DNA of 19,766 nt, from NCBI GenBank assembly GCA_040755315.1, contig JBFMBF010000021.1:1-19766 (forward strand), in the 5' to 3' direction. Shown here in pieces: positions 3-18,553 of this stretch. Below the pieces are notes generated by a model. The model was not told where the DNA came from and ran no database searches. It saw nothing but the letters and a program-made list of their open reading frames with translations. A program made the position numbers and the translations under genes. Position 1 is the stretch's first letter; the number at the start of each line of letters is the position of its first letter. Source of the stretch: Candidatus Hadarchaeota archaeon (lineage in GTDB: Archaea > Hadarchaeota > Hadarchaeia > Hadarchaeales > Hadarchaeaceae).

Positions 3-3000
3 GCCCGCTTGGAGAGCTGGTCCGCTGCAGTGAACTCGCCGGCGAGCTGGAAGTTACTTGAGAGCTGGTCCGCTGCAGTGAACTCGCCGGCGAGCTGGAA
101 GTTACTTGAGAGCTGGTCCGCTGCAGTGAATGCTCCGCCTTACGTGGGGTGGGCCCGCTTGGAGAGCTGGAGTGGGGCTTTAACGACCTTTACGCAGTGG
201 TACAGGCTGGAGACCTGGGCTGGAAAAGTGGCGGTGACTGGCCCTGCCCCGACTCTCGTCACTCCAACAAATGGAGCAAAAATTAACGACAACACCCCGC
301 AGCTCAGCTGGGACAACACCTGGATTGCAGACAACTGGGAAATTTGGATAGACAACGATACGAACTTCAGCTCACCAATTATCGAGAACATTCCAACCAA
401 CTCGTACACCCCATCGCTATCCGACGAGAACTACTCTTGGAAGGTCCGCGGTATTAATGATGGTTTCTACTCTAACTTCTCTCAAACATGGACATTCCTC
501 CTTGACACCGTCAAGCCCGGCATCCCGGTCAAATACTCTGTCAAAACCGACAACGGAATTGACGACCCGCCGGAAAACACCATCACGAGCGACACCACGA
601 TAGAATTTGACTGGAGTGATGTCACGGACAGCTCAAACTCCCCAACGGGGGAAAATGCTGGCGCAAGATATTACGAGGTGATTATCGACAACGGCACCTA
701 CACCATCGCTGAAAACATCTCTTGGCCTACATCAATAGTCATCATCGAAGTTCCGCAAGGCGAGTGGACATGGATAGTCCGGGCTTGGGACTGGGCAGGG
801 AACGTGAGTGACAACCAAGCGCCGTGGGGTCTGATAATAGACACGACTGGGCCAGCGCCACCTCCTCTCTCTTACCCTGCAAACGGTGCCATCATCAACA
901 TTGAAAACCAGACTTTCTCCTGGAACGTTCCGCAGGAAAAATATGGAGTGGTCCTCTACGAAATCCAGCTGGACAATGACAACAACTTTGGGTCGCTGCC
1001 ATCCTTCGGCTACTACCAAATTTCTGCCCCAACAACATCCAGACTAATCCGCATTCGTGAGGGCGGTGTCCCGAAGGACGAGAATTATTACTGGAGGGTT
1101 CGCGCTCAGGACAACTCGACCAACTGGAGCGAATGGTCTACCCCATGGACACTACTGTTGGACACCCTGCCCCCATCTGTTCCGCCAAAGTTCTGGCCAG
1201 ACAACAACTATGTGTCCACAACGGCCCAACTTACATTGGAATGGACAACCGTGACCGATAACTCTCTTTCCCCAACCGGAGAAAACGCTGGAGTGGAAAA
1301 CTACCAGGTATGGGTGGACAACGACAACGACTTCAGCTCGCCCGAGAACCTTTCAATAGTCACTCACCCATCAAAAGAATACACGACGACGCTCCACGAC
1401 AACGTCTGGTACTGGCGCGTTAAGGCAATTGATAGGGCTGGGAACGCGAGCGATTACCAAGTCTACTGGAAGTTCACCATTGACAATAACCCGCCTTCAG
1501 CCCCGTCAGCCCTGCTCGCACCTGCAAACGACACAAAAACCAACGAAAACAAGCCGCTGTTCAGATGGAACTGGGTTTTTGACGTGACTGGTGTAACATA
1601 CGAAATCTGGATAGACAACGACAACGACTTTAGCTCACCTTTCCGGGACAACAGGCTGGATAACGTCTGGAACTCCGCGGACAACTACTCCAACGGCCTC
1701 ACCGACGAGAACTACTCTTGGAAGGTCAGAGTGTGGGACGGGACTGGAAAGGTTGGCGCTTTCTCCCAGACATACACCCTCCTCGTTGATACCATGCCAC
1801 CAACTTCTCCGACCTCTTCTCCACAGGATGGACTGATGACCGCTGACAACAAGCCCACGATTTCATGGAGCGCCTCTACCGACAATTCCTACTCTCCAAC
1901 CGGAGAAAACGCGGGAATCTGGCGCTACCAGATCTGGCTCGACAACGACAACGACTTCAGCTCCATAGATTACACTGGGTTCAGCTACGATGATTCTGAT
2001 TTCGACTCCTTTGACGGCGGCACCGGTTACCCAGGCGCTGGGTTCAAGGAAGAGAACTACTCTTACAAGGTGGCCGCCTGGGACTGGGCGGGCAACCGCG
2101 GAGACAACAGCCCGACATGGACATTGGTAGTAGACAAAACCAGGCCATACGCACCGCCGCTCTTGAGTCCAGAAAACAGAGCCACCATAAATCACAACTT
2201 TTCTGGAGTGACACACGACTGGGCAGATGTGGACGACGCATCGGGGATAGACCACTATCAAATTCAAGTGGACAACGACGAGGACTTCTCATCCCCACAG
2301 GACCCAATTCACGATGGATTATTTTCCCCACCACCAAACAACCTCACGCAGTCCTACGTCAGCGTGGAGTACTTTGATGGCTCAAATTCCTATGATGACA
2401 AGTACTACTGGCGCGTGAGGGCCTACGACAGAGCCGAACCAGCCATGCCGGGGGCTTGGTCAGATGTCTGGGAGCTGATTATCGACACCGTGAAGCCGTT
2501 CAAATCGACTCTGCTCCAGCCGGAAAACAACCGCATAACCACAGACAACACCCCGTACTTCACCTGGGAGAACGTCACAGACAACGCCGCGAAGACCTCG
2601 GACGTGAGCGGCTTCAGCTATTTCATCCTGCAGATAGACAACACGCCCGCCTTCACCTCGCCGCGGGTATTCACCAACATCCTGGAGAACTGGTTCACCC
2701 TCCCGACTGACAATTACCTGCAGGTTGGAAACTGGTACTGGAGGGTCAGGGCAGTGGACCGCGCCGGCAACCAGGCTGACTGGGCCGAGAACTTCAGGCT
2801 GAAAGTCAACGACCTCACGCTGTCTGTTGCGCTCTCGGACAACGACGTGAACCCCTCGCAAAGCATCACCATATCTGGCAGGGCCTACTGGCAGCCTGAC
2901 AACGCATCCGTCACAAACAGGACAGTGTTTATCTATGTCGACGACAACCTGATAGACAACGTCATGACAAACGAGAACGGAAACTACACTTACAACTACT

Positions 3001-6000
3001 CCACCGCAATCCTCGGCCTCCACACTGCCAAGGTGATAATCACTGACAACGACAACACCACCGAGGAGAATTCCATCGCCTTCAAGGTCGAGACCCTGAC
3101 GGTCTCCCTCAACCTCGGCGACTATGTGGCCAAACAGGGGCAGAGCTTTACGGCGTCCGGCACCGTCATGAGGCTGCCAGACGGAGTTCCGGAGCAGAAC
3201 GGCACCGTCCAAATTTACATAGACGACAACTGGCAGGTGACCGTAAACACTAACGAGAACGGTTATTACACCACCAACCTGAATGCCCCATCTGCGCTTG
3301 GTCCACACACTGTGAAAGTGCAGGTGTCCAACCCGAACGGCATCACCCAGGAAAACACGAAGAACTTCACCGTGAAAACGATCAGAATAAGCGTTAGCCT
3401 GTCAAAGGCCCAATCCAACCCGCTTGAGCAAATTACCATCTCCGGAATAGCAAAGCTGGACGACGGGAGCACCCTGACGCCAATCGACGGAGAGAATGTC
3501 ATAATCTGGAAAGAGTGGATGGGCGCGGTAGACAAGCAGACTCCAACAATGGCGGACGGCTCTTACTCCACGGTCATCACCGCCCCGGGTGACATCGGAA
3601 CATACATTTACAAGGTCAAAATCACAGACTACCCGGACGACATTTACGGGGAGAACTCGACTACCCTGCAAGTCAAGAGGGCGGACATAACCGCCACCTA
3701 CGCAGACAACATAGTTAACCCCAACCAAAGCAACACCGTTTCAGGCACGGCCACTCTCGTTGGAGAAAGCGAAAACACTCCGATAGAAAACACTGTTGTA
3801 ACCTTCATCTTGGAGAACAGCACCGGCCAAACTGTTGCAAGCGCGGCAGGAAGCACCAACGCCAGCGGCAACTACTCCATAGCGTTCGCGTCCCCGCTGA
3901 AGCTTGACACATACACGGGGACTGTGAGCATATCATACAGCGGCTTCTCCGGCGCCCGCCAAGCCACCCTCTATGTAAAAACCGTCTGGATATCTCTGGG
4001 CTTCACGGACAACATAGTGAAGCTCACCGAGGATTTCACGATATACGGAACGGCTACACTTATGCCGGACAGCACCCCCGTGCAGAGCCGCACAGTCAGC
4101 CTCAGGAAGGACAACAGCACCCTGCTTGACCCATCGCCGGTCACGGACGAGAACGGTTACTACTCGTACCTCTACACATTGGACGCTACAAAGCCGGAGA
4201 ATCACAGCATGGTGGCAAACATCACAGATGTCAATGGGATCACCGGCGAAAACGTCCAATTCTTCGATCAGAGGGAAATTGCGTTCACATGGTTCGGGGT
4301 CTACGACAGCCACTACCAGTTCGACAGCGTCGTGAACCCTGGCGAAAACTTCTTCCCGAGCGTCAGGATAATTGAAAACAACGGGGCCCAGCTTATCCCG
4401 GTCACCGCCACAAAGGCAGAGGACCCGTTCAGGATGCAGATAGGGGTAGGCAACACCTACACCCTCTCGCATGTGTCTAATGGCTACTGGAAGATTGTCA
4501 CCACCACCCCATACACGGCGGCGGGCACCACGGGCACCTACTCCTTCCCGGCCGCAGATGTCCAAGTGACTGGTACCAGCGTCAACGGAATACAGGGGAC
4601 ATCGGCTGACGACACAATAGTATACAATGTCAAGACGCTTAGGCTCACGGTCACCGCCAGCGACTACATCGTCAGCCCAAGCCAGACTGGCGTCTCGGTG
4701 TTGGGGACTTTGACAATCCTGCCGGACGAGAACGCGGACAACGGCCAGACCGTGAAAGTGGAATTTAATGGCGAAAACACGTTCCTGACGACAAACGCCT
4801 CCGGGAACTACTCAACCCCTGTGACCATCCCGATCACAATAGGCTCCTACGAGGTCAGGGCTAGCGTCACCGACTCCCTGGGACTTGAACAGGAAAACAC
4901 CACGACAATCCAAGTGAAGAACATCACACTGTCGCTGCTGGGTTCGACGCCAGTAGCCGAGGAGGGGGTGCCGTTCACCCTCTATGGCCAAGCCAAGCGC
5001 TGGCCCGAGGGTTCCAATGTGCAAAACACCGACGTGAAGGTCTACATTAACGACAACCTCGTGACCACCACCCAGACAGATTTCGGAGGCAACTGGTCTT
5101 ACATCCACACCTTCACGACTCGCGGGATTGTCAATGTAAAAGTTAGCCTGACCGACTCGGACAACATAAGCGTCGAAAACACGATGCAGCTCACCGTCGG
5201 CCGTCCAATCCACATTTATGGTGTTATGAAGAGCCTGGACGGGCTGCCGATAAACGCCACAATGAAGTTCTACGAGCCAGGCACTACTGAGAACCTGTTC
5301 GACATCAAGACGGACGCTTCTGGCAACTACGACAAGTGGGTGTTCGCAGGATACTTCGACTTTGAGGTGATACTTGAGAACTACGGCTTCACGATAAAGT
5401 TCGAGAACCTGAACCTTGACGACCCGAAGAACTACCCGGACGGCGAAAACGTCATCGAGAACATCGTGGAAATTGACGTTCCTCCGACTGCCTTCATGTC
5501 GGTGCCGAACACCAGGACGGTCTTCAAGTCTGTCGCGGTTGATCCACACCAGCTGTTCACAGACAACCATGAAAACCGTAAGGTGACCTTCAACTTCTCG
5601 TCCTACATCACCCAAGTCGGGGATATCTGGTACCTGCGCCTGTACAGAACAAAGCAATACACTTACGAAACAAGGCAGGTCAACGGCTGGGAAACCCTTT
5701 CCTCAAGCCTTGACATCACCCAATACACGTTAACGGCGTGGGACAACATGGCCGGGGCGATGCCAGTCGGATTTGTTATCGCGGAGTTCGACCCGCTCGC
5801 GGAAACCATAACTGCACTTGAAAACACCGTCGGGCAGCTGCAGTCGGCGTCGGAGTCCTTGAACCAGTCCGCGCAGGCGGCAGCGGCATCTGTGGAGAAC
5901 CTCCAAGCCGTCTCCGAGAACTTGAAACAAACGGTGTCAACTCTGGCCACTCAGGAAAACGTGCAGGCGCTCCAGAGCTTGGTGGACAACATGCGCCAGC

Positions 6001-8981
6001 AAGTGGACAACCTGGCCACCCAAGCCAGCATGGAGAACTTGGCAACAAATGAGAACGTGCAATCGCTCCAGCAGCAGCTCAGCTACATCAGCGACAACAT
6101 CTTGGAGCTGTACGTAAGGACAGAAAACACATCACTCCTGGACAACCTGTGGACAAGCTTTGGGAGCATGTCCCAGACTGTGGACAACCTTGCCAAGCAG
6201 GAGAATGTCGAGAACCTGCAGAAAATGCTTTTATATGCCTTCCAGCTGCTCGACAACGTCGCCCCAAGGGAGTTCTTCACAGTAGACCCGCAAAACATTT
6301 CCCTCTCGCTCCGTCAGGGAGAAAGCATCACAATAGACATGAACGTGAACAACGGGGCCTTCGTCGATCTCACCTTCACACCATCGGCAAGCGGGGATGC
6401 TGCAAACTTCCTGAGCTTCAACCCGACATCTCTGTTTGTTGCGTCCTTAACCAGCGGCAAAATAAAAGTTTCAGCGGTAATCCCGGGTTCAGCTGAAGTC
6501 AAAACATACTCCGGATGGGTGACAATAAGAGACACCACAACTGGGAGAGAAAAGGTCATCCCGACGACAATCCAGGTCCTCTCAAAGGAAAAAGGCATGT
6601 TTGACATGACGGTGGTGCCCCGGACCAGCACTTTGATGCCGGGCGGCAAGCTGATTGTCGACGTGCTGTTCAAGAACCTAGGAACGACAGATTCCGATGT
6701 AACTGGAGTCTACGTTTCCATGCTCGGGCCTGGCGGAGAGAATTTCACAGTGTATGAAAACTCCTCATTCATGGTGGCTGCAGGCGAAGTAATAACCAAA
6801 ACATACGAGTTCGAAATTCCGGAAAACGCAAGCCAGGGCAGCTATCTCGTGAGGGTGGACGGCGTTTACCCGCGCGATGGAGCAGAGATAAAGCTCTCCT
6901 CTGCAGACACCGTGGAGATACGGAGGCCGCCAGAAGAACTCAGGGTAGCCGGAATCCCGTTATGGCTGCTGATTGCAATGATAATCGGGTTAACCGTCGC
7001 CGGAATATCTGGCCACTTCGCGCGCAAACAAATGAAGAAGAGGAGCATGAAGAAGAAACGCTTCGAGGCGACCATCTTCGCGGACGAGCTGCCGAAACCC
7101 GGCCCGAACACCATAAAGTTCGGACGCCTGGCCGAGGGCAAGGCGGACGCCTTCCTGGGTCTCAACGACGTCAAGATGCACATGATGACCGCCGGCTCCA
7201 CGGGAGGCGGGAAGACCATATCATCAATGGTCATCGCTGAAGAGGCGCTGATACAGGGCAAAAACGTGATAGTCTTCGACCCGACAGCCCAGTGGACAGG
7301 CTTCCTGAGGAAATGTACCGAACCGAAGATGATGTCCCACTACGCGAAGTTCGGACTCACCGATGCCGACGCCAGGAGCTTCCCGGGCGTCGTGAAGCTC
7401 ATCAAGGACCCGAGGCAGAAGATTGACATGAAGGAACTGCTGAGCGAGGCCACCCGCGGAAAGATCACAGTCTTCGTGATCGAGAGGCTCAAGCCCAGCG
7501 ACATGGACATCTTCGTCACGAACACCGTCCAGTCCATCTTTGCCTCGCAACCCATGGAATACCCAGATCTCAAGACGCTGATAATCTACGACGAGGTCCA
7601 CAGGCTGCTGCCCAAGTTCGGCGGCTCCGGGGCGGGGCAAATACAGCTTGAGCGCTCAGTCAGGGAGTTCCGTAAGTGGGGTATTGGTGTCATGCTGGTC
7701 TCGCAGACCATCGCTGACTTCGGGGAGACAATCAAGACCAACACCCGTACGCAGATCCAGTTCTGGACCCGTGAAGAGGCCGAGCTAGAAAGAATCAAGA
7801 TGAAGTACGGTGAGGAGCACGTCAGGTCCGTCTCGAAGGCCCCGATAGGATTCGGCATGGTCGTCAACCCAGACTACAACCGCGGCAGGCCTTACTACGT
7901 GAACTTCAGGCCCATCCTGCACTCGCCGTTCAGGCTCACGCCGGACGAGCTCGAGAAGTACTACGCTGCCGACGACAGGATAGAGGACATCAAGTTCAAG
8001 CTCAAAAAGCTGGAGGAGAAGGGCGTGGACGTGTTCGACCTCCGCATAGAGCTCGGGCTGGCCCAGCGCAAGCTCGAGGAAGCTTCATTCGACATGGTCA
8101 ACGCATACCTGGACTCGCTGGAGCCGAGGGTCGACGACGTCTGCGCAAGGCACAAGCTCAAGGGTCTCAAGAGGGAGATAGAGCTGGTCCCAGAGGACGA
8201 AATCAAGAGGGCGCAGACGGCCGCGCTCAGGGAGAGGGAGAGGCAGCTCGCCGCGGTACAGAAGACACCCGAGATAGTCGAGGCCTACCGCGACCTGCTC
8301 GGCCCGAAGAAGGAGGTCACCCACGGAGAAGTTGTGAAGCCTCTCAAGGAAGGCGCCAAGGAAGAGGTAAAAACAGAGGCGCCCGCCGGGGAATCATTCC
8401 ACCCCGACTCGGAAGAGGGGAAAGCAGCTGCCAAGGCGGCGGAAGAAAAGGCCAAGGCAGAGGCGAAAAGTGCAAAGAAGAAGACAAAGACGGACGGCGG
8501 CACTCAAATTAGGAGCAGAGTGTTGAGTCAAGTAAAAGCAGGCCGTGCTTCAGGCAAACCTCTCCGAGCTGCCGACAAGAGAAAGACTGCCACAGACGGC
8601 GGCAAATACTTGACCCATGAAGTCGCGGGGCAGGCAAAAGCAAGCCCGGCGCCCAGCAAATCTTTGGCGGAAACTATCAAGAAGTCACTCTCTGAGATGG
8701 GATACACTTACCACGACTCCGAAATGGCGTCTGCTACTGAAAGAAAGAAGGGGAAGACAAAGACGGACGGCGGCAAATTCATGCCTGGCTTGGTTTCAAA
8801 GCAGGGAAAGACAAGCGCGGCCAATGGAAAATCTTTGGCTGAAATGATCAAGCGGTCCCTCTCTGAGATGGGATATACATACAACGACTCCGAAATGGCC
8901 TCTGCACCGGAAAGGAAAAAGGCAAATAAGCTCCAAAAAAGTGTAAAGGGGAGGAAACATGCCAAAAGCAGGGGGAGATGA
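3..8981 (+). CDS. Giant single-pass membrane/surface protein with C-terminal cytoplasmic HerA/FtsK/VirB4-like (DUF87/DUF853-type) P-loop ATPase; 5'-partial
   Basis: The frame is open from nt 3 and no signal peptide is visible, so the true start is probably upstream. Layout: WxxLESW repeats (1-230); about 8 FN3-like modules (YxIxxDNDxxFSSP...YxWxVRAxDxAGN, ~230-2810); Ig/carboxypeptidase-regulatory-like modules (TxxNGxY, ~2810-5780); heptad coiled coil (~5790-6260); two Ig-like domains; TM IPLWLLIAMIIGLTVAGISG followed by RKQMKKRSMKKKR (~6950-7060); Walker A GSTGGGKT (~7194-7217); Walker B LIIYDEVH (~7578-7601); REFRKWG and MLVSQ motifs (~7662-7706). Confidence 0.9.
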   Translation, partial: ARLESWSAAVNSPASWKLLESWSAAVNSPASWKLLESWSAAVNAPPYVGWARLESWSGALTTFTQWYRLETWAGKVAVTGPAPTLVTPTNGAKINDNTPQLSWDNTWIADNWEIWIDNDTNFSSPIIENIPTNSYTPSLSDENYSWKVRGINDGFYSNFSQTWTFLLDTVKPGIPVKYSVKTDNGIDDPPENTITSDTTIEFDWSDVTDSSNSPTGENAGARYYEVIIDNGTYTIAENISWPTSIVIIEVPQGEWTWIVRAWDWAGNVSDNQAPWGLIIDTTGPAPPPLSYPANGAIINIENQTFSWNVPQEKYGVVLYEIQLDNDNNFGSLPSFGYYQISAPTTSRLIRIREGGVPKDENYYWRVRAQDNSTNWSEWSTPWTLLLDTLPPSVPPKFWPDNNYVSTTAQLTLEWTTVTDNSLSPTGENAGVENYQVWVDNDNDFSSPENLSIVTHPSKEYTTTLHDNVWYWRVKAIDRAGNASDYQVYWKFTIDNNPPSAPSALLAPANDTKTNENKPLFRWNWVFDVTGVTYEIWIDNDNDFSSPFRDNRLDNVWNSADNYSNGLTDENYSWKVRVWDGTGKVGAFSQTYTLLVDTMPPTSPTSSPQDGLMTADNKPTISWSASTDNSYSPTGENAGIWRYQIWLDNDNDFSSIDYTGFSYDDSDFDSFDGGTGYPGAGFKEENYSYKVAAWDWAGNRGDNSPTWTLVVDKTRPYAPPLLSPENRATINHNFSGVTHDWADVDDASGIDHYQIQVDNDEDFSSPQDPIHDGLFSPPPNNLTQSYVSVEYFDGSNSYDDKYYWRVRAYDRAEPAMPGAWSDVWELIIDTVKPFKSTLLQPENNRITTDNTPYFTWENVTDNAAKTSDVSGFSYFILQIDNTPAFTSPRVFTNILENWFTLPTDNYLQVGNWYWRVRAVDRAGNQADWAENFRLKVNDLTLSVALSDNDVNPSQSITISGRAYWQPDNASVTNRTVFIYVDDNLIDNVMTNENGNYTYNYSTAILGLHTAKVIITDNDNTTEENSIAFKVETLTVSLNLGDYVAKQGQSFTASGTVMRLPDGVPEQNGTVQIYIDDNWQVTVNTNENGYYTTNLNAPSALGPHTVKVQVSNPNGITQENTKNFTVKTIRISVSLSKAQSNPLEQITISGIAKLDDGSTLTPIDGENVIIWKEWMGAVDKQTPTMADGSYSTVITAPGDIGTYIYKVKITDYPDDIYGENSTTLQVKRADITATYADNIVNPNQSNTVSGTATLVGESENTPIENTVVTFILENSTGQTVASAAGSTNASGNYSIAFASPLKLDTYTGTVSISYSGFSGARQATLYVKTVWISLGFTDNIVKLTEDFTIYGTATLMPDSTPVQSRTVSLRKDNSTLLDPSPVTDENGYYSYLYTLDATKPENHSMVANITDVNGITGENVQFFDQREIAFTWFGVYDSHYQFDSVVNPGENFFPSVRIIENNGAQLIPVTATKAEDPFRMQIGVGNTYTLSHVSNGYWKIVTTTPYTAAGTTGTYSFPAADVQVTGTSVNGIQGTSADDTIVYNVKTLRLTVTASDYIVSPSQTGVSVLGTLTILPDENADNGQTVKVEFNGENTFLTTNASGNYSTPVTIPITIGSYEVRASVTDSLGLEQENTTTIQVKNITLSLLGSTPVAEEGVPFTLYGQAKRWPEGSNVQNTDVKVYINDNLVTTTQTDFGGNWSYIHTFTTRGIVNVKVSLTDSDNISVENTMQLTVGRPIHIYGVMKSLDGLPINATMKFYEPGTTENLFDIKTDASGNYDKWVFAGYFDFEVILENYGFTIKFENLNLDDPKNYPDGENVIENIVEIDVPPTAFMSVPNTRTVFKSVAVDPHQLFTDNHENRKVTFNFSSYITQVGDIWYLRLYRTKQYTYETRQVNGWETLSSSLDITQYTLTAWDNMAGAMPVGFVIAEFDPLAETITALENTVGQLQSASESLNQSAQAAAASVENLQAVSENLKQTVSTLATQENVQALQSLVDNMRQQVDNLATQASMENLATNENVQSLQQQLSYISDNILELYVRTENTSLLDNLWTSFGSMSQTVDNLAKQENVENLQKMLLYAFQLLDNVAPREFFTVDPQNISLSLRQGESITIDMNVNNGAFVDLTFTPSASGDAANFLSFNPTSLFVASLTSGKIKVSAVIPGSAEVKTYSGWVTIRDTTTGREKVIPTTIQVLSKEKGMFDMTVVPRTSTLMPGGKLIVDVLFKNLGTTDSDVTGVYVSMLGPGGENFTVYENSSFMVAAGEVITKTYEFEIPENASQGSYLVRVDGVYPRDGAEIKLSSADTVEIRRPPEELRVAGIPLWLLIAMIIGLTVAGISGHFARKQMKKRSMKKKRFEATIFADELPKPGPNTIKFGRLAEGKADAFLGLNDVKMHMMTAGSTGGGKTISSMVIAEEALIQGKNVIVFDPTAQWTGFLRKCTEPKMMSHYAKFGLTDADARSFPGVVKLIKDPRQKIDMKELLSEATRGKITVFVIERLKPSDMDIFVTNTVQSIFASQPMEYPDLKTLIIYDEVHRLLPKFGGSGAGQIQLERSVREFRKWGIGVMLVSQTIADFGETIKTNTRTQIQFWTREEAELERIKMKYGEEHVRSVSKAPIGFGMVVNPDYNRGRPYYVNFRPILHSPFRLTPDELEKYYAADDRIEDIKFKLKKLEEKGVDVFDLRIELGLAQRKLEEASFDMVNAYLDSLEPRVDDVCARHKLKGLKREIELVPEDEIKRAQTAALRERERQLAAVQKTPEIVEAYRDLLGPKKEVTHGEVVKPLKEGAKEEVKTEAPAGESFHPDSEEGKAAAKAAEEKAKAEAKSAKKKTKTDGGTQIRSRVLSQVKAGRASGKPLRAADKRKTATDGGKYLTHEVAGQAKASPAPSKSLAETIKKSLSEMGYTYHDSEMASATERKKGKTKTDGGKFMPGLVSKQGKTSAANGKSLAEMIKRSLSEMGYTYNDSEMASAPERKKANKLQKSVKGRKHAKSRGR
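12..130 (+). repeat. Perfect in-frame 48-bp tandem repeat (about 2.5 copies) encoding ESWSAAVNSPASWKLL
   Basis: Unit GAGAGCTGGTCCGCTGCAGTGAACTCGCCGGCGAGCTGGAAGTTACTT starts at 12, 60 and 108 (third copy partial). Nt 1-20 also recur exactly at 151-170. Confidence 0.95.
8592..8921 (+). repeat. 171-bp (57-aa) imperfect tandem duplication in the giant protein's C-terminal tail
   Basis: TDGGK at 8592 and 8763. KSLAETIKKSLSEMGYTYHDSEMASATERKK (8658) vs KSLAEMIKRSLSEMGYTYNDSEMASAPERKK (8829). A third TDGG lies at 8490. Confidence 0.9.
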
Positions 8982-9834
8982 AGAATCCGTAAAGGCCGCC
9001 TTGAAGCCGGTCACCACAAAGCTTGAGCAGATGGAGGCCCAGGTGGCCGCCCTGTCAAGCCTCAGGGAGACCTACGACACCAGGTTCACCATGCTCAGCG
9101 AGAAAATCGGAGAGGTCAGGTCCATGATCCTCACGCAGGCCAAGGAGGGCGCCGATGCAAAGGCCAAGGCGGAGAAGGCGCTGATGGCCCTCGAGGGGGT
9201 GAAGCCTGAGGAGTTCAGGTCCGCCATTATCAAGAGGGACGCAGACGTCGAGGCCCTCAAGGTGAAGCTTTCCTCCACTGACGACATGATCAAGAACCTC
9301 ATGGCCGAGATGAGGGACTTCAGGAACGCCCTCGCACAGTTCAAGGGGCTAGAGGCCGTTATCGGGATGTCCGACGAGGCGAGGAAGAACATCATCAGAA
9401 TCCAGCAGCTCAAGGACCAGGTTGAAGTGATGTCTGACAAAGTCATGGCGGCTTTCATGGAGTTCCAGCGCAGGTTCAAGGACGTGACTGACCTTGGGCT
9501 GAAGGTCTCTACCCTTGAGGAGACTGTAAAACCATTGGGAAAGTCAGTAAACCAGATTGATGTGCTGGTGAAGCAGGCGGTCACGAAAGCCGAGATGGCA
9601 AAGCTCACGGGGGACATCGAGAGCCTGAAGAGAGTGGCCGAGGAGATAAAAACATACCACCAGCAGCTCACAGAAAGCGGCGAAGCCACACAGAAGCTGA
9701 AGGTGGAACTTGGTAAAACCTTGAAGCAGGCGGAGATAAGGAACAAGAAAGAGCTGGCCAAGATAAACGCGCAAATCAAGGTTCTGGAGAAGATAACCTC
9801 CAAGCTGCTCAAGTTGATTCTTTCACCCGGGTGA
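8959..9834 (+). CDS. Uncharacterized all-alpha coiled-coil protein (291 aa)
   Basis: Continuous heptad-like K/E/L/A-rich sequence with no TM segment. GGAGG RBS just upstream; overlaps the end of the giant ORF by 23 nt. Confidence 0.85.
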   Translation: MPKAGGDEESVKAALKPVTTKLEQMEAQVAALSSLRETYDTRFTMLSEKIGEVRSMILTQAKEGADAKAKAEKALMALEGVKPEEFRSAIIKRDADVEALKVKLSSTDDMIKNLMAEMRDFRNALAQFKGLEAVIGMSDEARKNIIRIQQLKDQVEVMSDKVMAAFMEFQRRFKDVTDLGLKVSTLEETVKPLGKSVNQIDVLVKQAVTKAEMAKLTGDIESLKRVAEEIKTYHQQLTESGEATQKLKVELGKTLKQAEIRNKKELAKINAQIKVLEKITSKLLKLILSPG

Positions 9835-9836
9835 AG

Positions 9837-9866
9837 TTTAAATACTACTACTAACTACTACTAACT
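9837..9866 (+). promoter_or_regulatory. TATA box plus 10-bp direct repeats (candidate operator) upstream of the zinc-ribbon/MinD genes
   Basis: TTTAAATA at 9837-9844; ACTACTACTA x2 (9844-9853, 9854-9863) plus ACT. The ATG at 9874 is about 30 nt downstream, consistent with a leaderless or short-leader archaeal transcript. Confidence 0.6.
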
Positions 9867-9873
9867 GGTCAGG

Positions 9874-9999
9874 ATGAAGCTTCATTGCAAGAAGTGTGGG
9901 TACAACTGGGAGTACCGAGGCAAGTCAAAATTTTACGCTACATGCCCGAGATGTCTTCGCAAAGTCAAGGTGGCGGAGCCCCCGCAAAGGAGAAAGTGA
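9874..9999 (+). CDS. 41-aa C4 zinc-ribbon microprotein (not in ORF track)
   Basis: Manual translation MKLHCKKCGYNWEYRGKSKFYATCPRCLRKVKVAEPPQRRK*. Two CxxC pairs with a CGYxWxYxG...YxTCPxC pattern typical of small archaeal Zn fingers; fits between the TATA box and the MinD ATG. Confidence 0.85.
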   Translation: MKLHCKKCGYNWEYRGKSKFYATCPRCLRKVKVAEPPQRRK

Positions 10000-10003
10000 G
10001 AGC

Positions 10004-10810
10004 ATGGTGAAGAAGAGAAGCGGACTTATCATAGGGGTCTTTTCAGCAAAGGGGGGGGTGGGCAAGACCACCACCGTCGCCAACATAGGAGCGGCCCTGG
10101 CCCAGAAGCTCAAGGACAAGGTCCTCCTCGCAGAGACCAACATGACGGCTTCAAATCTGGGCCTTCACCTTGGAATACTTGACCCGCCAATAGTCGTGCA
10201 AGATGTGGTGTACGGTCGGGTCAAGGTATCGGACGCCATCATAAAGACTGAATACGGGATACATGTCCTGCCGGGCTCTGTGGCCTTCACCGAGGAAGTC
10301 GGGTCGATAGACCTGAGTGCGATAATCTCTGAACTCAAGAAGAAGTACCAAGTGATAATCTTGGACACCGCCCCTGGCTTTGCCCCCGAGGTCTACGCCG
10401 GAATGAAGGTCTGCGACGAGATACTCGTGTGCTGCCAGCCGCAGGTCCCTGCCATAGCTGGGACGCTGCAGACTTTCAGGGCTGCCGACAAGCTGAAGAT
10501 ACCCACGTTCGGGGTCGTGCTTACGAGGATCACAAAGAAAAGGTACGAGATCTCGCTGTCTGACATCAGAAGGACTCTGGGGTGGCCCACCCTGGTCGAG
10601 GTGCCTGAAGACGACATGGTGCCCGAAAGCATAACCAGAGGGATGCCGGTGGTGCTCTACGCGCCCAACGCTCCAGCCGCAGTAGAATACAGGAAGCTGG
10701 CCCAGATGATCCTTTCACACATCAAGGGGCGCAAGCGAGTGAAGCCGACCCGCAGGAAAACCGTGAAGAGGCGAGCGAAGCCTGTAAAAGCAAAGAGGAG
10801 AAGGAGGTAA
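10004..10810 (+). CDS. minD: MinD/ParA-family (SIMIBI) ATPase
   Basis: Deviant Walker A KGGVGKTT, IILDTAPG switch II and a C-terminal PEDxxV...GxPVVxYxPxxPAA motif of archaeal MinD. Start moved to ATG 10004 (MVKKRSG) after a GGAG motif. Confidence 0.88.
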   Translation: MVKKRSGLIIGVFSAKGGVGKTTTVANIGAALAQKLKDKVLLAETNMTASNLGLHLGILDPPIVVQDVVYGRVKVSDAIIKTEYGIHVLPGSVAFTEEVGSIDLSAIISELKKKYQVIILDTAPGFAPEVYAGMKVCDEILVCCQPQVPAIAGTLQTFRAADKLKIPTFGVVLTRITKKRYEISLSDIRRTLGWPTLVEVPEDDMVPESITRGMPVVLYAPNAPAAVEYRKLAQMILSHIKGRKRVKPTRRKTVKRRAKPVKAKRRRR

Positions 10811-10813
10811 AAC

Positions 10814-11362
10814 ATGGCGCTTGTGCACCTGCCGCCGATGGCCAGGTTCTTCATGCCGATGCCAGAGGATCGCATCAAGAAGAAGGCAAAGTATAATCTT
10901 GGGGAAAAGTACCTGGTGGTGGAGAGCTCGCCGAAGTTATCCGTTGAAATATTCAAGGAAATTACAACCCACGGCGTGCCGGGCATCTGGTTGACAAGCC
11001 ACGACCCGAAAAGCGTGGAGCTTGGGTTTGGCCTTAGCAAGACTGCGATCCTTTCCCTCACCGATAAAAAACTGCCTGGAGAGGCCACCCTGCCGCCCGA
11101 CAGGCTGGACAGGGCTGTGGACATAGTGGCTAACTACCTCAGCAGGACCGGGCTGGCCGTGGCGCTGATAGACAACTTCTCAGACCTAGCGCGGGTGAAT
11201 GGAATCTCCAAGGTCCTTGACTTCATAAAAAAGATGGAAGACACCTGCGCAAAGAACGACTACGCTCTGATAGTGGTGCTTGACCCCGCTGCATTTGCGG
11301 AAGCCCAGGTCAATGTTCTCATTGAAGGATTCAGGGACTGGCGGATTTTCAAACAGGTGTAA
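10814..11362 (+). CDS. DUF835-like (degenerate RecA/KaiC-fold) protein
   Basis: YLVVESSPKLSVEIF..GIWLTSHDP..AILSLT..VALIDNFSDLARVNG..FIKKMED..LIVVLDPAAF matches the DUF835 pattern from memory; no Walker A. GGAGGT RBS upstream. Confidence 0.7.
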   Translation: MALVHLPPMARFFMPMPEDRIKKKAKYNLGEKYLVVESSPKLSVEIFKEITTHGVPGIWLTSHDPKSVELGFGLSKTAILSLTDKKLPGEATLPPDRLDRAVDIVANYLSRTGLAVALIDNFSDLARVNGISKVLDFIKKMEDTCAKNDYALIVVLDPAAFAEAQVNVLIEGFRDWRIFKQV

Positions 11363-13718: not shown

Positions 13719-15074
13719 ATGCCAAAACCAAGCTGGGTCAAGCACGGGCCCCGGGTGATAAATCCTGTCCCTGGCCCGATGGCGAAAAAGCTCGTGACGA
13801 GGGACGAACGAGTGATGTCACCCTCGTACACCAGGTCTGAGCCGATAGTGGCGACTGAGGGTTGGGGCGCCTATGTCAGGGATGTGGACGGCAACGTCTT
13901 CCTCGACCTCTCTTCCGGAATGTTCGTCCTCAACTACGGCTATTCCCATCCCCGTCTGGTCAATGCTGTCAAACAGCAGGCCACTAAACTCACCCACTTC
14001 GCTGGAACGGACTTTTACTACGAGGCCCAGGTCAAGCTCGCCGAGATGCTGGTGGATCTGGCGCCAGGGAAGTTTCCAAAGAGGGTCTACTTCGGGAATT
14101 CCGGCGCCGAGGCGGTTGAGGCCGCCTTCAAGTGCGCCCGGTGGCACAGCCGACGCCCGAGGATGATATCTTTCACGGGGGCGTTCCACGGAAGGACATT
14201 CGGGGCTATGAGCCTTTCAGCTACAAATGTACTCCACCACAGATACTTCTTCCCGCTCGTCCCAGGGGTGAGCTTCATGCCGTACCCATACTGCTACCGC
14301 TGCCCGTTCAGCCAGGAGCACCCGGGCTGCGACTTTCTCTGCATAGAGTTCATACGAGACTACATCAAAAAAGTCATCCCGCCTGAAGAGGTCGCCGCGG
14401 TTATAACTGAGCCAATCCAGGGAAGCTCAGGGTACATCGTCCCGCCTCCCGAATTTTATCCCATGCTGAAGGAGCTGGCCGACGAGCACGGGTGGCTCCT
14501 GATAGCCGACGAGGTTCAGACAGGGCTTGGGCGCACGGGGAGGAACTTCGCTATGGAACACTGGGGAGTGGTCCCGGACATGATCTGCGTTGCGAAGGCT
14601 CTCTCTGGAGGCATGGCCCCGATAGGAGCAATGATATCCAACACCAAAGTCATGGACTGGGAACCAGGCGCCCACGCTTCAACATTCGGAGGCAACCTTG
14701 TGGCCTGCGCGGCAGCCATCGAGGGGCTGAAGATCCTTAAGGAACAGAACTTGGTGAAGCGCGCTGAGAAACTCGGTAGCTTTGCTCTGAAGAGGCTGAA
14801 CGAGATTGCCGAAGGGTCGAGTATAATAGGTGATGTACGCGGCAAGGGGCTCCTTCTGGCCATAGAGCTCGTGAAGGACAAAAGGACAAGGGAGACTGCG
14901 GTGGAGACTCGGGAGAAGCTCATCCGTGATACGCTCGACCGCGGCCTGATAATATTCAGGGGGGGGCGCTCTGTGATCAGGATTGCGCCGCCGCTAGTCT
15001 CGACTAGGCTTGAGCTTCAGCTTGGGTTGGACATCCTTGAAAAGTCTCTCAAAGAAATTGAGCGAAAGCTATGA
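13719..15074 (+). CDS. Class-III PLP-dependent aminotransferase (4-aminobutyrate/acetylornithine/ornithine aminotransferase family)
   Basis: NSGAEAVEAA, FHGRT, EPIQG, DEVQTGLGRTG, PDMICVAKALSGG (PLP lysine), STFGGN. Confidence 0.92.
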   Translation: MPKPSWVKHGPRVINPVPGPMAKKLVTRDERVMSPSYTRSEPIVATEGWGAYVRDVDGNVFLDLSSGMFVLNYGYSHPRLVNAVKQQATKLTHFAGTDFYYEAQVKLAEMLVDLAPGKFPKRVYFGNSGAEAVEAAFKCARWHSRRPRMISFTGAFHGRTFGAMSLSATNVLHHRYFFPLVPGVSFMPYPYCYRCPFSQEHPGCDFLCIEFIRDYIKKVIPPEEVAAVITEPIQGSSGYIVPPPEFYPMLKELADEHGWLLIADEVQTGLGRTGRNFAMEHWGVVPDMICVAKALSGGMAPIGAMISNTKVMDWEPGAHASTFGGNLVACAAAIEGLKILKEQNLVKRAEKLGSFALKRLNEIAEGSSIIGDVRGKGLLLAIELVKDKRTRETAVETREKLIRDTLDRGLIIFRGGRSVIRIAPPLVSTRLELQLGLDILEKSLKEIERKL

Positions 15075-17830: not shown

Positions 17831-18241
17831 TCACTTGAGAATTTTTAGCATCTTGTCTACTGTTATTATTTTGATGCCTTTGAAGCTCTTCAGAGAAGTG
17901 AGATGTTTATCCCCCGAAACAATGTAATCTGCGTGGGCACTGTACGCAGTATTCACAATAACATCGTCTTTTGGGTCCTCTTTTACTACCCTAAACTTGC
18001 TCATGACTTCCACCAGAATCATTCTTTTGCCAAGATACCTGAGGAACTCGCTCACATCAGTGCCGCTAACATATCGCCTAATCCTGTCTCTAGCCAAAAC
18101 TGAAATCATCTCATCCAACAAAGGCTTGGAACTGACCAGCTTGGCATCGACCCCGTCTATTCTTAAAACAAGCTGTCGCGGTTTGCCTCCGCTTATCAAA
18201 GCTGAAATGAGAACATTGGTGTCCGCAACTATCTTGATCAT
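17831..18241 (-). CDS. vapC: PIN-domain toxin (VapC-like)
   Basis: IVADTNVLISAL, E in LLDEM, EDPKDDVIVNTA, IVSGDKHL: acidic PIN tetrad. Confidence 0.9.
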   Translation of the reverse strand: MIKIVADTNVLISALISGGKPRQLVLRIDGVDAKLVSSKPLLDEMISVLARDRIRRYVSGTDVSEFLRYLGKRMILVEVMSKFRVVKEDPKDDVIVNTAYSAHADYIVSGDKHLTSLKSFKGIKIITVDKMLKILK

Positions 18242-18511
18242 TTATCTGCCTTTGTTTCTGTAGTCGTGGACTAGTTTGAATATCTCTTTTTCTGTAATCC
18301 CACCGTATCGCTTCACACGTTCATCAACGCGTTTAAAAACCGCCTCAAGCTTTCGCCTTTCTTGTTCAAGGTCGATTTTTCTCATTATCACCGCATCCCC
18401 ACGCCCAGCGACCAACATCTTCGTTTTCGGTTTCAAGCCAAGCTTTGTCCTCAACTTCCTGGGTATAACTATCTGTCCCCTCTCGCCAACTACGCTAATT
18501 TCTTCTTTCAA
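18242..18511 (-). CDS. AbrB/MazE/SpoVT-family antitoxin
   Basis: VVGERGQIVIPRKLRTKLGLKPKTKMLV; abuts the PIN gene. Start probably TTG 18511 (GGTGG RBS); the track's ATG 18535 lies within the promoter region. Confidence 0.88.
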   Translation of the reverse strand: MKEEISVVGERGQIVIPRKLRTKLGLKPKTKMLVAGRGDAVIMRKIDLEQERRKLEAVFKRVDERVKRYGGITEKEIFKLVHDYRNKGR

Positions 18512-18523
18512 TATGCCCACCAA

Positions 18524-18553
18524 TATGAAATTCATACTTTTAAGTATTTATAA
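18524..18553 (-). promoter_or_regulatory. TA promoter with overlapping inverted repeats (candidate antitoxin operator)
   Basis: Minus-strand TTATAAAT (18546-18553); palindromes TATGAA-A-TTCATA (18524-18536) and ATACTT-TT-AAGTAT (18534-18547). Confidence 0.6.

Follow-up and report, generated by a model that had tools for sequence, protein, structure and literature searches.

The window analysed here, a 19,766-nucleotide contig from a Candidatus Hadarchaeota archaeon, opens with a gene whose giant product almost certainly belongs, as a Hadarchaeota representative, to the SPEARE family, and the core of this system is two genes, encoding the single-pass giant protein and a cytoplasmic coiled-coil partner. 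A sequence-only reading had seen in five genes here a candidate for an undescribed envelope machine. All five do lie on the + strand and are tightly packed, from 3-8981 through 10814-11362 (Table 1); they form two modules, the giant gene with its partner, and a Zn-ribbon/MinD/DUF835 cassette.

Table 1. Features of the giant gene and the four genes that follow it, in window coordinates.
Feature	Position	Strand	Remarks
C-terminal 2,992 aa of SPEARE-type giant single-pass protein	3..8981	+	ORF, 5' end open; RLG14629.1 homology
48-nt tandem repeat (16-aa Trp-rich unit) where the assembly breaks	12..130	+	
FN3/Ig-like repeat array, recurring strand motif matched 9 times	228..2852	+	PF25788, PF19077; 25-31% identity to ATPase-less fibres on C1, C2, C9
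Second Ig-like array and linker domain	2853..5852	+	~39-46% identity in nearest Hadarchaeota homologues
Probable extracellular coiled-coil stalk	5853..6332	+	read from sequence, not folded; 25-40% identity in relatives
Membrane-proximal Ig-like domains	6333..6944	+	
Single TM helix, basic cytoplasmic flank	6945..7001	+	
Compact HerA/FtsK/VirB4-fold ATPase (Walker A, Walker B, REFRKWG, SQ)	7038..8042	+	
Conserved C-terminal helical hairpin/coiled-coil tip	8043..8312	+	
Variable basic low-complexity tail, three TDGG motifs	8313..8981	+	longer than relatives' tails
All-helical coiled-coil partner, 291 aa	8959..9834	+	conserved core ~residues 20-200; in no curated family
41-aa Zn-ribbon, CxxC...CxxC	9874..9999	+	
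MinD-family ATPase, 268 aa	10004..10810	+	Hadarchaeota subfamily usually 3' of single-pass surface fibres
DUF835 (inactive KaiC-like) protein, 182 aa	10814..11362	+	DUF835 E 7e-16

The family is the subject of two papers, Hamm et al. 2019 (PMC6642349) and Reva et al. 2023 (PMC10266531). SPEARE proteins are described there as extracellular proteins of giant size, anchored in the membrane, from Nanohaloarchaeota and further DPANN archaea (PMC6642349; PMC10266531), and RLG14629.1 is named as a SPEARE match (PMC6642349). The first 335 residues of the window ATPase are 52% identical (E 8e-117) to the ORF of locus L056, which is RLG14629.1, and the similarity extends over 505 aa (44%, E 2e-133), a span that starts in the final Ig domain and takes in the TM helix, the ATPase and the hairpin; RLG14629.1 is the named SPEARE sequence used for the comparison. 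This direct homologue maps the locus to a system already described, an outcome that the sequence-only reading had itself listed as refuting it, and since the architecture had been published, the element of surprise is limited.

Like SPEARE proteins, the giant protein is very long and mostly extracytoplasmic, with an Ig-rich ectodomain, one TM helix near the C-terminus, and a cytoplasmic ATPase that has a ResIII and VirB4/TraG-like match and is followed by a coiled-coil tip (modelled as helical); the SPEARE ATPase, known as a 'type III restriction' match, was re-read in PMC10266531. The differences lie first in the host phylum, Hadarchaeota, which is outside DPANN and absent from the groups in the main text of PMC6642349, although its supplement (Table S3, Fig. 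S17) may list Hadesarchaea, and second in the ectodomain, which is of the native Trp-repeat/FN3/PGF-pre-PGF type. Laminin-G, a nanohaloarchaeal feature (PMC6642349), had no Pfam match in the window part of the protein, in its C2 part (below) or in the partial RLG14629.1, and from the last of these we conclude that laminin-G is not a family-wide SPEARE feature. Pfam likewise gave no peptidase match in the giant protein that would correspond to the serine protease domain described in PMC6642349 and disputed by PMC10266531. Finally, no downstream VirB4-like gene, on which the secretion role proposed for the family rests (PMC10266531), was found at the window locus.

The giant gene is truncated by the contig end and very probably continues on contig C2, and the full protein, window part plus C2 part, would probably have ~7,000 aa, subject to the number of repeat units where the two contigs meet. 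A 4,114-codon frame with a signal-like stretch at its N-terminus exits C2 inside the same 48-nt repeat in which the window starts; its final 88 nt are window 59-147, and words of this repeat occur at just two contig ends genome-wide, those of C2 and the window. The fusion of ectodomain, TM helix and ATPase proposed by the sequence-only reading is real and conserved, as the three are colinear in relatives, within one open frame of 7,934 aa and another of 7,554 aa or more, an order that rules out a misassembled junction. That a 1,100-aa section has been lost between C2 and C21 was likewise rejected: the additional stretch in G025 best matches existing FN3 arrays, no separate contig matches it, and it is therefore read as a difference in repeat number. 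A scan of sigma-70 promoters and terminators stayed at chance level.

The anticipated single TM helix with a basic flank was found as the one hydrophobic segment of the ORF, which peaks at residue 2315 (KD 2.36); a K/R-rich stretch comes after it, and 48 of the 49 N-glycosylation sequons come before it. Of 81 family ORFs, 80 likewise have a hydrophobic segment ahead of the ATPase, and the one without it is contig-truncated. Among the nearest Hadarchaeota homologues the ATPase is 73-84% identical, versus about 40-50% for the ectodomain, and the membrane-proximal Ig domains are the sole ectodomain part widely common to DPANN members; of the 52 members from outside Hadarchaeota whose N-terminal part exceeds 300 residues, 37 have them. 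Ectodomain length ranges from 65 to 3,194 aa in 43 5'-complete ORFs (273-292 aa in 13 of them), a spread that does not fit a fixed-length 'straw'. Natural minimal versions of ~680-780 aa exist, those of the L087, L089 and L114 type having about 680 aa, and some members all but devoid of an ectodomain seem genuine, such as L091 (424 aa). Stand-alone ATPases, which would speak against the sequence-only reading, were sought among 378 retrieved proteins, of which 259 have a TM helix and ectodomain. The remainder comprise 62 with a TM helix and short N-terminus, 10 with a long N-terminus and weak TM, 15 that are N-truncated, and 32 with a short N-terminus and no TM; most of these 32 start at or just past the TM helix and look like truncated gene calls.

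The catalytic motifs of the ATPase are intact (Walker A at residue 2398, nt 7194; DEVHR at 2530, with Walker B at nt about 7590; RKWG at 2557; SQ at 2567). Its structure model (pLDDT 94.5) best matches HerA (4d2i; Z 25.2, rmsd 2.9, 251 aligned residues), followed by DndH (Z 23.8), VirB4 (4ag5; Z 23.1) and TrwB (Z 19.1). Across 118 family sequences the Walker A G/G/K, R209, R212 and S222-Q223 are invariant and the Walker B D/E is at least 90% conserved. These results uphold the proposed ATPase class and support a HerA/FtsK/VirB4 fold, as modelled, with predicted catalytic motifs kept family-wide.

The giant ATPase shares its core fold and motifs with archaeal HerA, of HerA-NurA end resection (4d2i, 9x1l), but it has neither the N-terminal barrel, replaced by the TM helix and ectodomain, nor the long helical insertion. 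Its DUF87 match, above the cut-off, covers model positions 1-80, versus 1-219 in the full-length DUF87 protein (514 aa) that this genome encodes separately, on C8; PF04851 scores just below its cut-off (E 3.4e-4, 21 bits against 22.5). From Walker A to the C-terminal core there are ~50 profile positions, versus ~120 residues in Sulfolobus HerA, where a helical insertion in this segment lines the DNA channel; the short segment implies that this insertion is much reduced in the giant ATPase. VirB4, TrwB and CedB-CedD belong to the same superfamily and are likewise membrane-tethered envelope motors, but the giant motor is fused to its own adhesin and lacks conserved nearby channel or pilus subunits. 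Its NCBIfam scores for CedD, of the Ced DNA import system (32.6 bits, equivalog cut-off 600), and VirB4_plasma (18.1, cut-off 590) fall below the thresholds.

The coiled-coil gene overlaps the giant ORF by 23 nt. Of 80 loci, 60 carry a homologue next to the ATPase, 32 of these within 150 nt, and 8 of the 20 partner-less loci have less than 300 nt of downstream DNA; the RLG14629.1 gene, too, is followed by the same partner (L056:6384-7424). Within Hadarchaeota, partner and intact ATPase occur in the same 12 of 66 genomes, the partner being found in 0 of the other 54, and the two trees give the same subclades. Gene neighbourhood and co-occurrence thus support a dedicated genomic partner of the ATPase, though kin share genes and the co-occurrence is not independent evidence of binding. 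Foldseek found no match to the partner in the PDB, Pfam gave generic coiled-coil matches alone, and the best Atlas clusters were unnamed DPANN hypotheticals. Co-prediction of the ATPase and tip with the coiled-coil core, run without controls, scored 0.00 against a mark of 0.32 and is given no weight for or against binding. The partner is unmentioned in the sections used of PMC6642349 and PMC10266531, though it may coincide with the pilus-linked 'CCP' proteins (10.1101/2023.02.24.529834). In the literature searched we found neither the partner linkage nor the two-module split nor the Hadarchaeota clade, and nothing on the SPEARE family in the sections used of PMC8204110, 10.1101/2020.07.16.207365 and PMC11420986.

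We searched for further secretion genes. The loci yielded no conserved multi-pass membrane neighbour, the top clusters with at least two hydrophobic segments covering 14 and 7 of the 80 (the former is a PKD/Ig surface protein), and no second family-like ATPase; no second VirB4/TraG ATPase is adjacent in the window, and PF03135, PF10412 and PF12846 had no match in the genome, which is 86.6% complete and in which divergent channel proteins could escape. With no channel gene and no second VirB4 found, we therefore infer the mechanism.

The reading that we tentatively favour, at somewhat less than an even chance, is a contact-site ring motor that threads a polymer at the cell's own membrane. The glycosylated FN3/Ig rod would be exported by Sec, extend far past the S-layer, and bind another cell or a surface. 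The ATPase domains would assemble a ring, like HerA/FtsK-family motors, and so bring together several TM helices, along with the Ig domains next to the membrane, as a portal where contact is made. The coiled-coil protein may serve as scaffold or adaptor, and ATP hydrolysis would thread DNA or polypeptide through the portal in one direction or the other; MinD may position such fibres in general. Against this motor count the empty search for channel genes and a second VirB4, the variable ectodomain length, the reduced HerA-type insertion and the signalling-type modules (DUF835, DUF5752, TPR, KaiC, V4R) that tails and neighbouring genes often bear.

The empty channel search also suits a contact-sensing receptor without transport, in which ectodomain binding or tension would alter ATPase clustering and a nucleotide switch would signal via the partner and KaiC-type modules. 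The layout is receptor-like, with a freely exchanged ectodomain, and regulatory modules do occur: DUF5752 on 8 of 25 tails scanned, TPR on 2 and DUF835, given as an inactivated KaiC output domain (PMC5847659), on one (L071; also P0233 and P0386), with KaiC and V4R genes adjoining the ATPase in Altiarchaeales-type loci. Walker-degenerate soluble paralogues in G023 and G011, and a contig-cut fragment of that type in G018, look as regulators would. The signalling modules, however, are lineage-restricted and missing from most members, and a ring motor accords with the invariant arginines and the SQ motif. We know of no HerA/FtsK-clade ATPase that acts as a pure switch, and we consider the receptor rather unlikely.

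We think it unlikely, too, that the protein is a mechanical anchor, whose ring would grip and remodel a lattice of coiled coils in the cytoplasm and thereby hold, cluster or retract the fibres, making an attachment plaque and transporting nothing. The sole near-constant partner is an all-helical rod whose tree has the same subclades as that of the ATPase, the ectodomain is an adhesin-like rod, and DPANN attachment organelles exist (PMC11420986); yet PMC6642349 found nothing SPEARE-like in Nanoarchaeota or Parvarchaeota, as these were delimited at the time, the group where organelles were imaged, and three Micrarchaeota loci have no partner within 10 kb.

The preferred motor would thus comprise two genes, and the remaining three are the native cassette of ATPase-less fibres, recruited at the window locus. 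The Trp-repeat/FN3 fibres of Hadarchaeota (C1, C9, C41, C43; L122-L135) share with the giant protein their ectodomain repeats, including in this genome the type of 16-aa Trp-rich unit, a single TM helix and a basic tail, as well as an adjacent MinD gene with or without Zn-ribbon and DUF835; they differ in having no ATPase domain and no coiled-coil partner. The Zn-ribbon belongs with MinD, 61-67% identical copies lying directly 5' of it in L123, L126, L128 and L132. The top NCBIfam match of the MinD protein is TIGR01969 (165 bits, below the 201.75 cut-off), and DUF835 in relatives is often a ~400-aa membrane-fused form adjoining the same MinD, of which the one scanned is HisKA_7TM-DUF835. A single dedicated machine with MinD positioning and the Zn-ribbon and DUF835 as its own subunits is very improbable: the tight co-orientation, a MinD orthologue (65-68%) 3' of the partner in G025, G035, G032 and G039, and occasional, loose fusion of DUF835 to the ATPase favour it, but in 11 of the 14 Hadarchaeota loci read the MinD orthologue, whether Zn-ribbon and DUF835 accompany it or not, is 3' of ATPase-less fibres, the G017 cassette adjoins DUF357-dph5 exactly as in the window while its giant gene is on another contig, and MinD/ParA occurs near the ATPase in only 4 of the 69 loci from outside Hadarchaeota, the Zn-ribbon in none of the 80 overall. 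Of the clustering first proposed, the coiled-coil gene stands and the five-gene unit does not.

The Hadarchaeota ATPases group in a single clade, and each giant protein has the look of a native fibre to which a DPANN-type motor was added. A more far-reaching proposal, doubtful as a whole, is that SPEARE and its partner make up a minimal trans-envelope machine, for translocation or contact, in which two genes and a single membrane pass suffice and a separate channel is dispensable, and that one transfer from an Aenigmarchaeota-like DPANN archaeon brought it to Hadarchaeota, where it was joined to a native fibre of ~7,000 residues and the MinD positioning cassette of that fibre. For the way in which DPANN archaea engage their hosts SPEARE is a leading molecular candidate, its putative function disputed between restriction enzyme and secretion straw; this locus reduces the system to a two-gene core and splits the MinD cassette from it, and the minimal versions could be expressed. 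The patchy presence in Hadarchaeota suggests an unrecognised cell-contact lifestyle or a non-parasitic SPEARE role, and if the transfer proposal is true, some Hadarchaeota would have gained a symbiont-type tool to feed on, or swap macromolecules with, other cells.

The first of five co-oriented genes at the start of the window is open at its 5' end; in its product the only TM segment lies near residue 2315, with 48 of the 49 sequons N-terminal to it and the Walker A, DEVHR, RKWG and SQ motifs, all intact, on the C-terminal side. Pfam recognizes Ig-like repeats, a partial DUF87 and, weakly, ResIII. The window is the entire contig C21 of the source genome (1.21 Mb, 86.6% complete), and another contig, C2, carries a 4,114-codon frame that is open at the contig end, inside the 48-nt repeat that also starts the window. 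The final 88 nt of this frame recur at window 59-147, and words of the repeat are confined to these two contig ends across the genome. Close to its start the C2 frame encodes a signal-like hydrophobic stretch, and it also carries a PGF-pre-PGF domain and Ig-like arrays. A complete homologue of 7,934 aa from genome G025 is colinear with it over the N-terminal half and aligns with the window frame in its C-terminal part. Because of the shared repeat and the colinear alignment, the complete protein is very probably ~7,000 aa long, and the ectodomain-TM-ATPase junction, which the sequence-only reading had described, is genuine. The closest named homologues are from Hadarchaeales. Housekeeping genes follow on the opposite strand, including DUF357 and a methyltransferase read as dph5; among them is a plus-strand class III aminotransferase, and a lower-GC stretch (45%) holds an ordinary toxin-antitoxin pair.

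The same reading had called this machine undescribed, a claim that has to be withdrawn. The ectodomain-TM-ATPase architecture is already published as SPEARE, since RLG14629.1, named as a SPEARE match (PMC6642349; Hamm et al., 2019) and an ORF of our locus L056, is homologous to the giant ORF (52% identity over the ATPase, and 44% in a 505-aa alignment that runs from the last Ig domain through TM and ATPase to the tip). That paper describes giant proteins whose TM lies close to the C-terminus and whose conserved intracellular portion resembles type III restriction enzymes, and it reports related sequences from Woese-, Aenigm-, Micrarchaeota and Altiarchaeales. The domain was re-interpreted, in the part available of PMC10266531 (Reva et al., 2023), as a VirB4/TraG-like ATPase with a coiled-coil tip, secretion 'straws' being proposed; small SPEARE-like genes are mentioned in the accessible text of PMC9563170. 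Its role in the literature is still a proposal.

The predicted ATPase structure (pLDDT 94.5) most closely matches HerA (Z 25.2, rmsd 2.9, 251 aligned; also ranked first by Foldseek), followed by DndH (Z 23.8), VirB4 (23.1), TrwB (19.1) and FtsK (17.3). Housekeeping HerA is ruled out as its identity, being a separate 514-aa gene in the genome, and the window ATPase scores far under the CedD and VirB4 cut-offs. The stretch inserted between its Walker A and C-terminal core is much shorter than that of HerA. Across 118 sequences, every catalytic residue is either invariant or conserved in at least 90%. A GTDB genome scan with an 11-sequence ATPase alignment gave 472 coding stretches, the best 80 of which (the loci analysed here) come from Hadarchaeota (11), Aenigm-, Woese-, Pace-, Micr-, Alti- and Nanohalarchaeota and unclassified archaea; against 50%-identity representatives the profile matched 369 clusters at E<=1e-30. 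In these best 80 of 472 loci, 80 of 81 ATPase ORFs are closely preceded by a hydrophobic segment and keep Walker A/B intact, the exception being contig-truncated, and N-terminal length ranges from 65 to 3,194 aa in the 43 5'-complete ORFs (13 cluster at 273-292 aa). Five Altiarchaeales-type loci (L088, L089, L100, L114, L118) encode minimal ~680-aa members, good expression candidates, with KaiC, in four of the five also V4R, the coiled-coil partner and a small two-TM protein downstream; some loci of this type have KaiC and V4R genes as neighbours. Two divergent SPEARE copies occur in G011 (C11, C25) and G031 (C27, C29), each with a partner gene nearby; in L075 a tandem pair of copies sits alongside one partner gene. 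Soluble 266-296-aa paralogues in G023 and G011, with degenerate Walker A/B and a retained ERGVRE(F/L)RK motif, are possibly inactive regulators; G018 has a contig-cut fragment of this type. The basic tail of the giant ORF contains three copies of a TDGG motif; a further copy lies near the C-terminus of an ATPase-less fibre on C9, and none was found in those relatives' SPEARE tails that were compared.

The 291-aa coiled-coil protein is, judged by neighbourhood and co-occurrence, a dedicated partner of the ATPase. A profile built from 47 close homologues (the named ones all Hadarchaeales) detected relatives at 60 of the best 80 of 472 loci (weakest E 2.6e-9). A broader profile, for which reversed-sequence controls reached a best E of 5.6e-5, again found 60; the distance to the ATPase gene is at most 150 nt in 32 of them, and 56 share its strand. 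In eight of the 20 loci without it the available downstream DNA is <300 nt; three Micrarchaeota loci have no copy within 10 kb. Intact ATPase occurs in 12 of 66 Hadarchaeota genomes (G023 has only a degenerate copy) and the partner in exactly the same 12; neither was found with these queries in the two same-genus genomes (90% and 86% complete). The partner matches no curated family, has two invariant residues and is predicted nearly all-helical (pLDDT 83.7, pTM 0.28). Partner and ATPase trees recover the same subclades, and pairwise identities correlate (Spearman 0.63; 57 loci, non-independent pairs), which shows co-inheritance and says nothing of binding.

HerA/FtsK-superfamily ATPases behave as ring motors. 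Because of this behaviour, the strict catalytic conservation and the constant membrane tethering, we tentatively favour a ring motor at a contact site that would drive a polymer through a portal formed by its own TM helices; the coiled-coil protein would serve as scaffold or adaptor. Against such a portal stand the lack of a conserved channel gene among the neighbours (best 80 of 472 loci), the lack of a VirB4/TrwB-type Pfam match in the 86.6%-complete genome, the reduced ATPase insertion and an ectodomain too variable for a fixed conduit. That the protein serves instead as a signalling receptor is unlikely, and a role as mechanical anchor is less probable again. Ca. Melinoarchaeum was seen in culture as single cells, according to the accessible text of PMC11297162.

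A single machine built from all five genes, as first envisaged, is improbable: among the best 80 of 472 loci, MinD/ParA lies near the ATPase in 10 (only 4 of 69 outside Hadarchaeota), a DUF835 gene in one and the Zn-ribbon in none. Within the phylum, 29 matches to the MinD orthologue reach at least 60% identity, and many of them are in genomes that lack the ATPase. In 11 of the 14 inspected as loci MinD is preceded by an ATPase-less single-pass surface protein with a 119-219-aa tail; in the others it follows the coiled-coil partner (L133), lies at a contig end (L125) or has no fibre (L123). The Zn-ribbon is upstream in 4 of 14 and DUF835 downstream in 6 (five are ~400-aa forms, and the one of these that was scanned is HisKA_7TM-DUF835). 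L123 has Zn-ribbon, MinD and DUF835 followed by DUF357-dph5, ordered as in the window, with the giant gene absent. MinD paralogues in the source genome adjoin ATPase-less Trp-repeat fibres on four contigs. The link of DUF835 to the ATPase is loose (fused in 1 of 25 tails scanned, plus proteins P0233 and P0386); among the other tails, DUF5752 is present on 8 of 25 and TPR on 2 of 25. The five genes make up two modules rather than one. For Hadarchaeota single-pass Trp-repeat/FN3 fibres with basic cytoplasmic tails, MinD pairing is recurrent and Zn-ribbon, DUF835 or membrane-fused DUF835 are often present, a candidate fibre-positioning and signalling cassette. C41 and C43 share near-identical gene order (a pair read as SPFH-like, MinD, fibre) with diverged sequence, reflecting either duplication or strain mixture in the bin.

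Coordinates of features in the window, the source genome (G000) and retrieved loci
Feature	Location	Orientation	Remark
Giant ORF (ectodomain-TM-ATPase)	window 3-8981	co-oriented with next four	
TDGG x3, giant ORF basic tail	window 8490-8775		
291-aa coiled-coil protein	window 8959-9834	co-oriented	generic coiled-coil Pfam match
Zn-ribbon ORF	window 9874-9999	co-oriented	
MinD/ParA ORF	window 10004-10810	co-oriented	Pfam MinD/ParA
DUF835 ORF	window 10814-11362	co-oriented	Pfam DUF835
Class III aminotransferase	window 13719-15074	+	
PIN-domain and MazE/AbrB-type genes	window 17831-18535	-	
MinD-paired fibre loci	G000 C1:18572-28567, C9:1-6957, C41:3450-7320, C43:3585-6810		also L122-L135
C9 fibre ORF with TDGG	C9:1-6060		
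Soluble paralogue	L039:6871-7758	-	
Soluble paralogue	L040:5877-6674	-	
Soluble paralogue	L041:1-354 (contig-cut fragment)	+	

In a rapidly built, unrooted tree (83 ATPase domains, from the best 80 of 472 matches and three genomes; SH-aLRT only), the 13 Hadarchaeota rows fall in one clade (SH-aLRT 100) that groups with nine rows, six labelled Aenigmarchaeota (SH-aLRT 99). Loci L082, L083, L103 and L117, labelled Methanosarcinales, fall inside Woesearchaeota-like clades and represent either mislabelled bins or transfer. Among 52 non-Hadarchaeota members with >300 N-terminal residues, only 2 match the FN3 and 5 the Ig part of the distal ectodomain, and 37 match the membrane-proximal domains; by domain content, the distal ectodomain of the Hadarchaeota copies is of the native type. 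In the literature searched, which was light on subscription journals and did not include the PMC6642349 supplement, we found no account of SPEARE in Hadarchaeota, the coiled-coil partner or the MinD-fibre cassette. From the unrooted tree and the domain content we tentatively infer a single acquisition of a proximal-Ig-TM-ATPase module with its partner. What this analysis adds is the division into two modules and the apparent grafting of the acquired one onto a native fibre.
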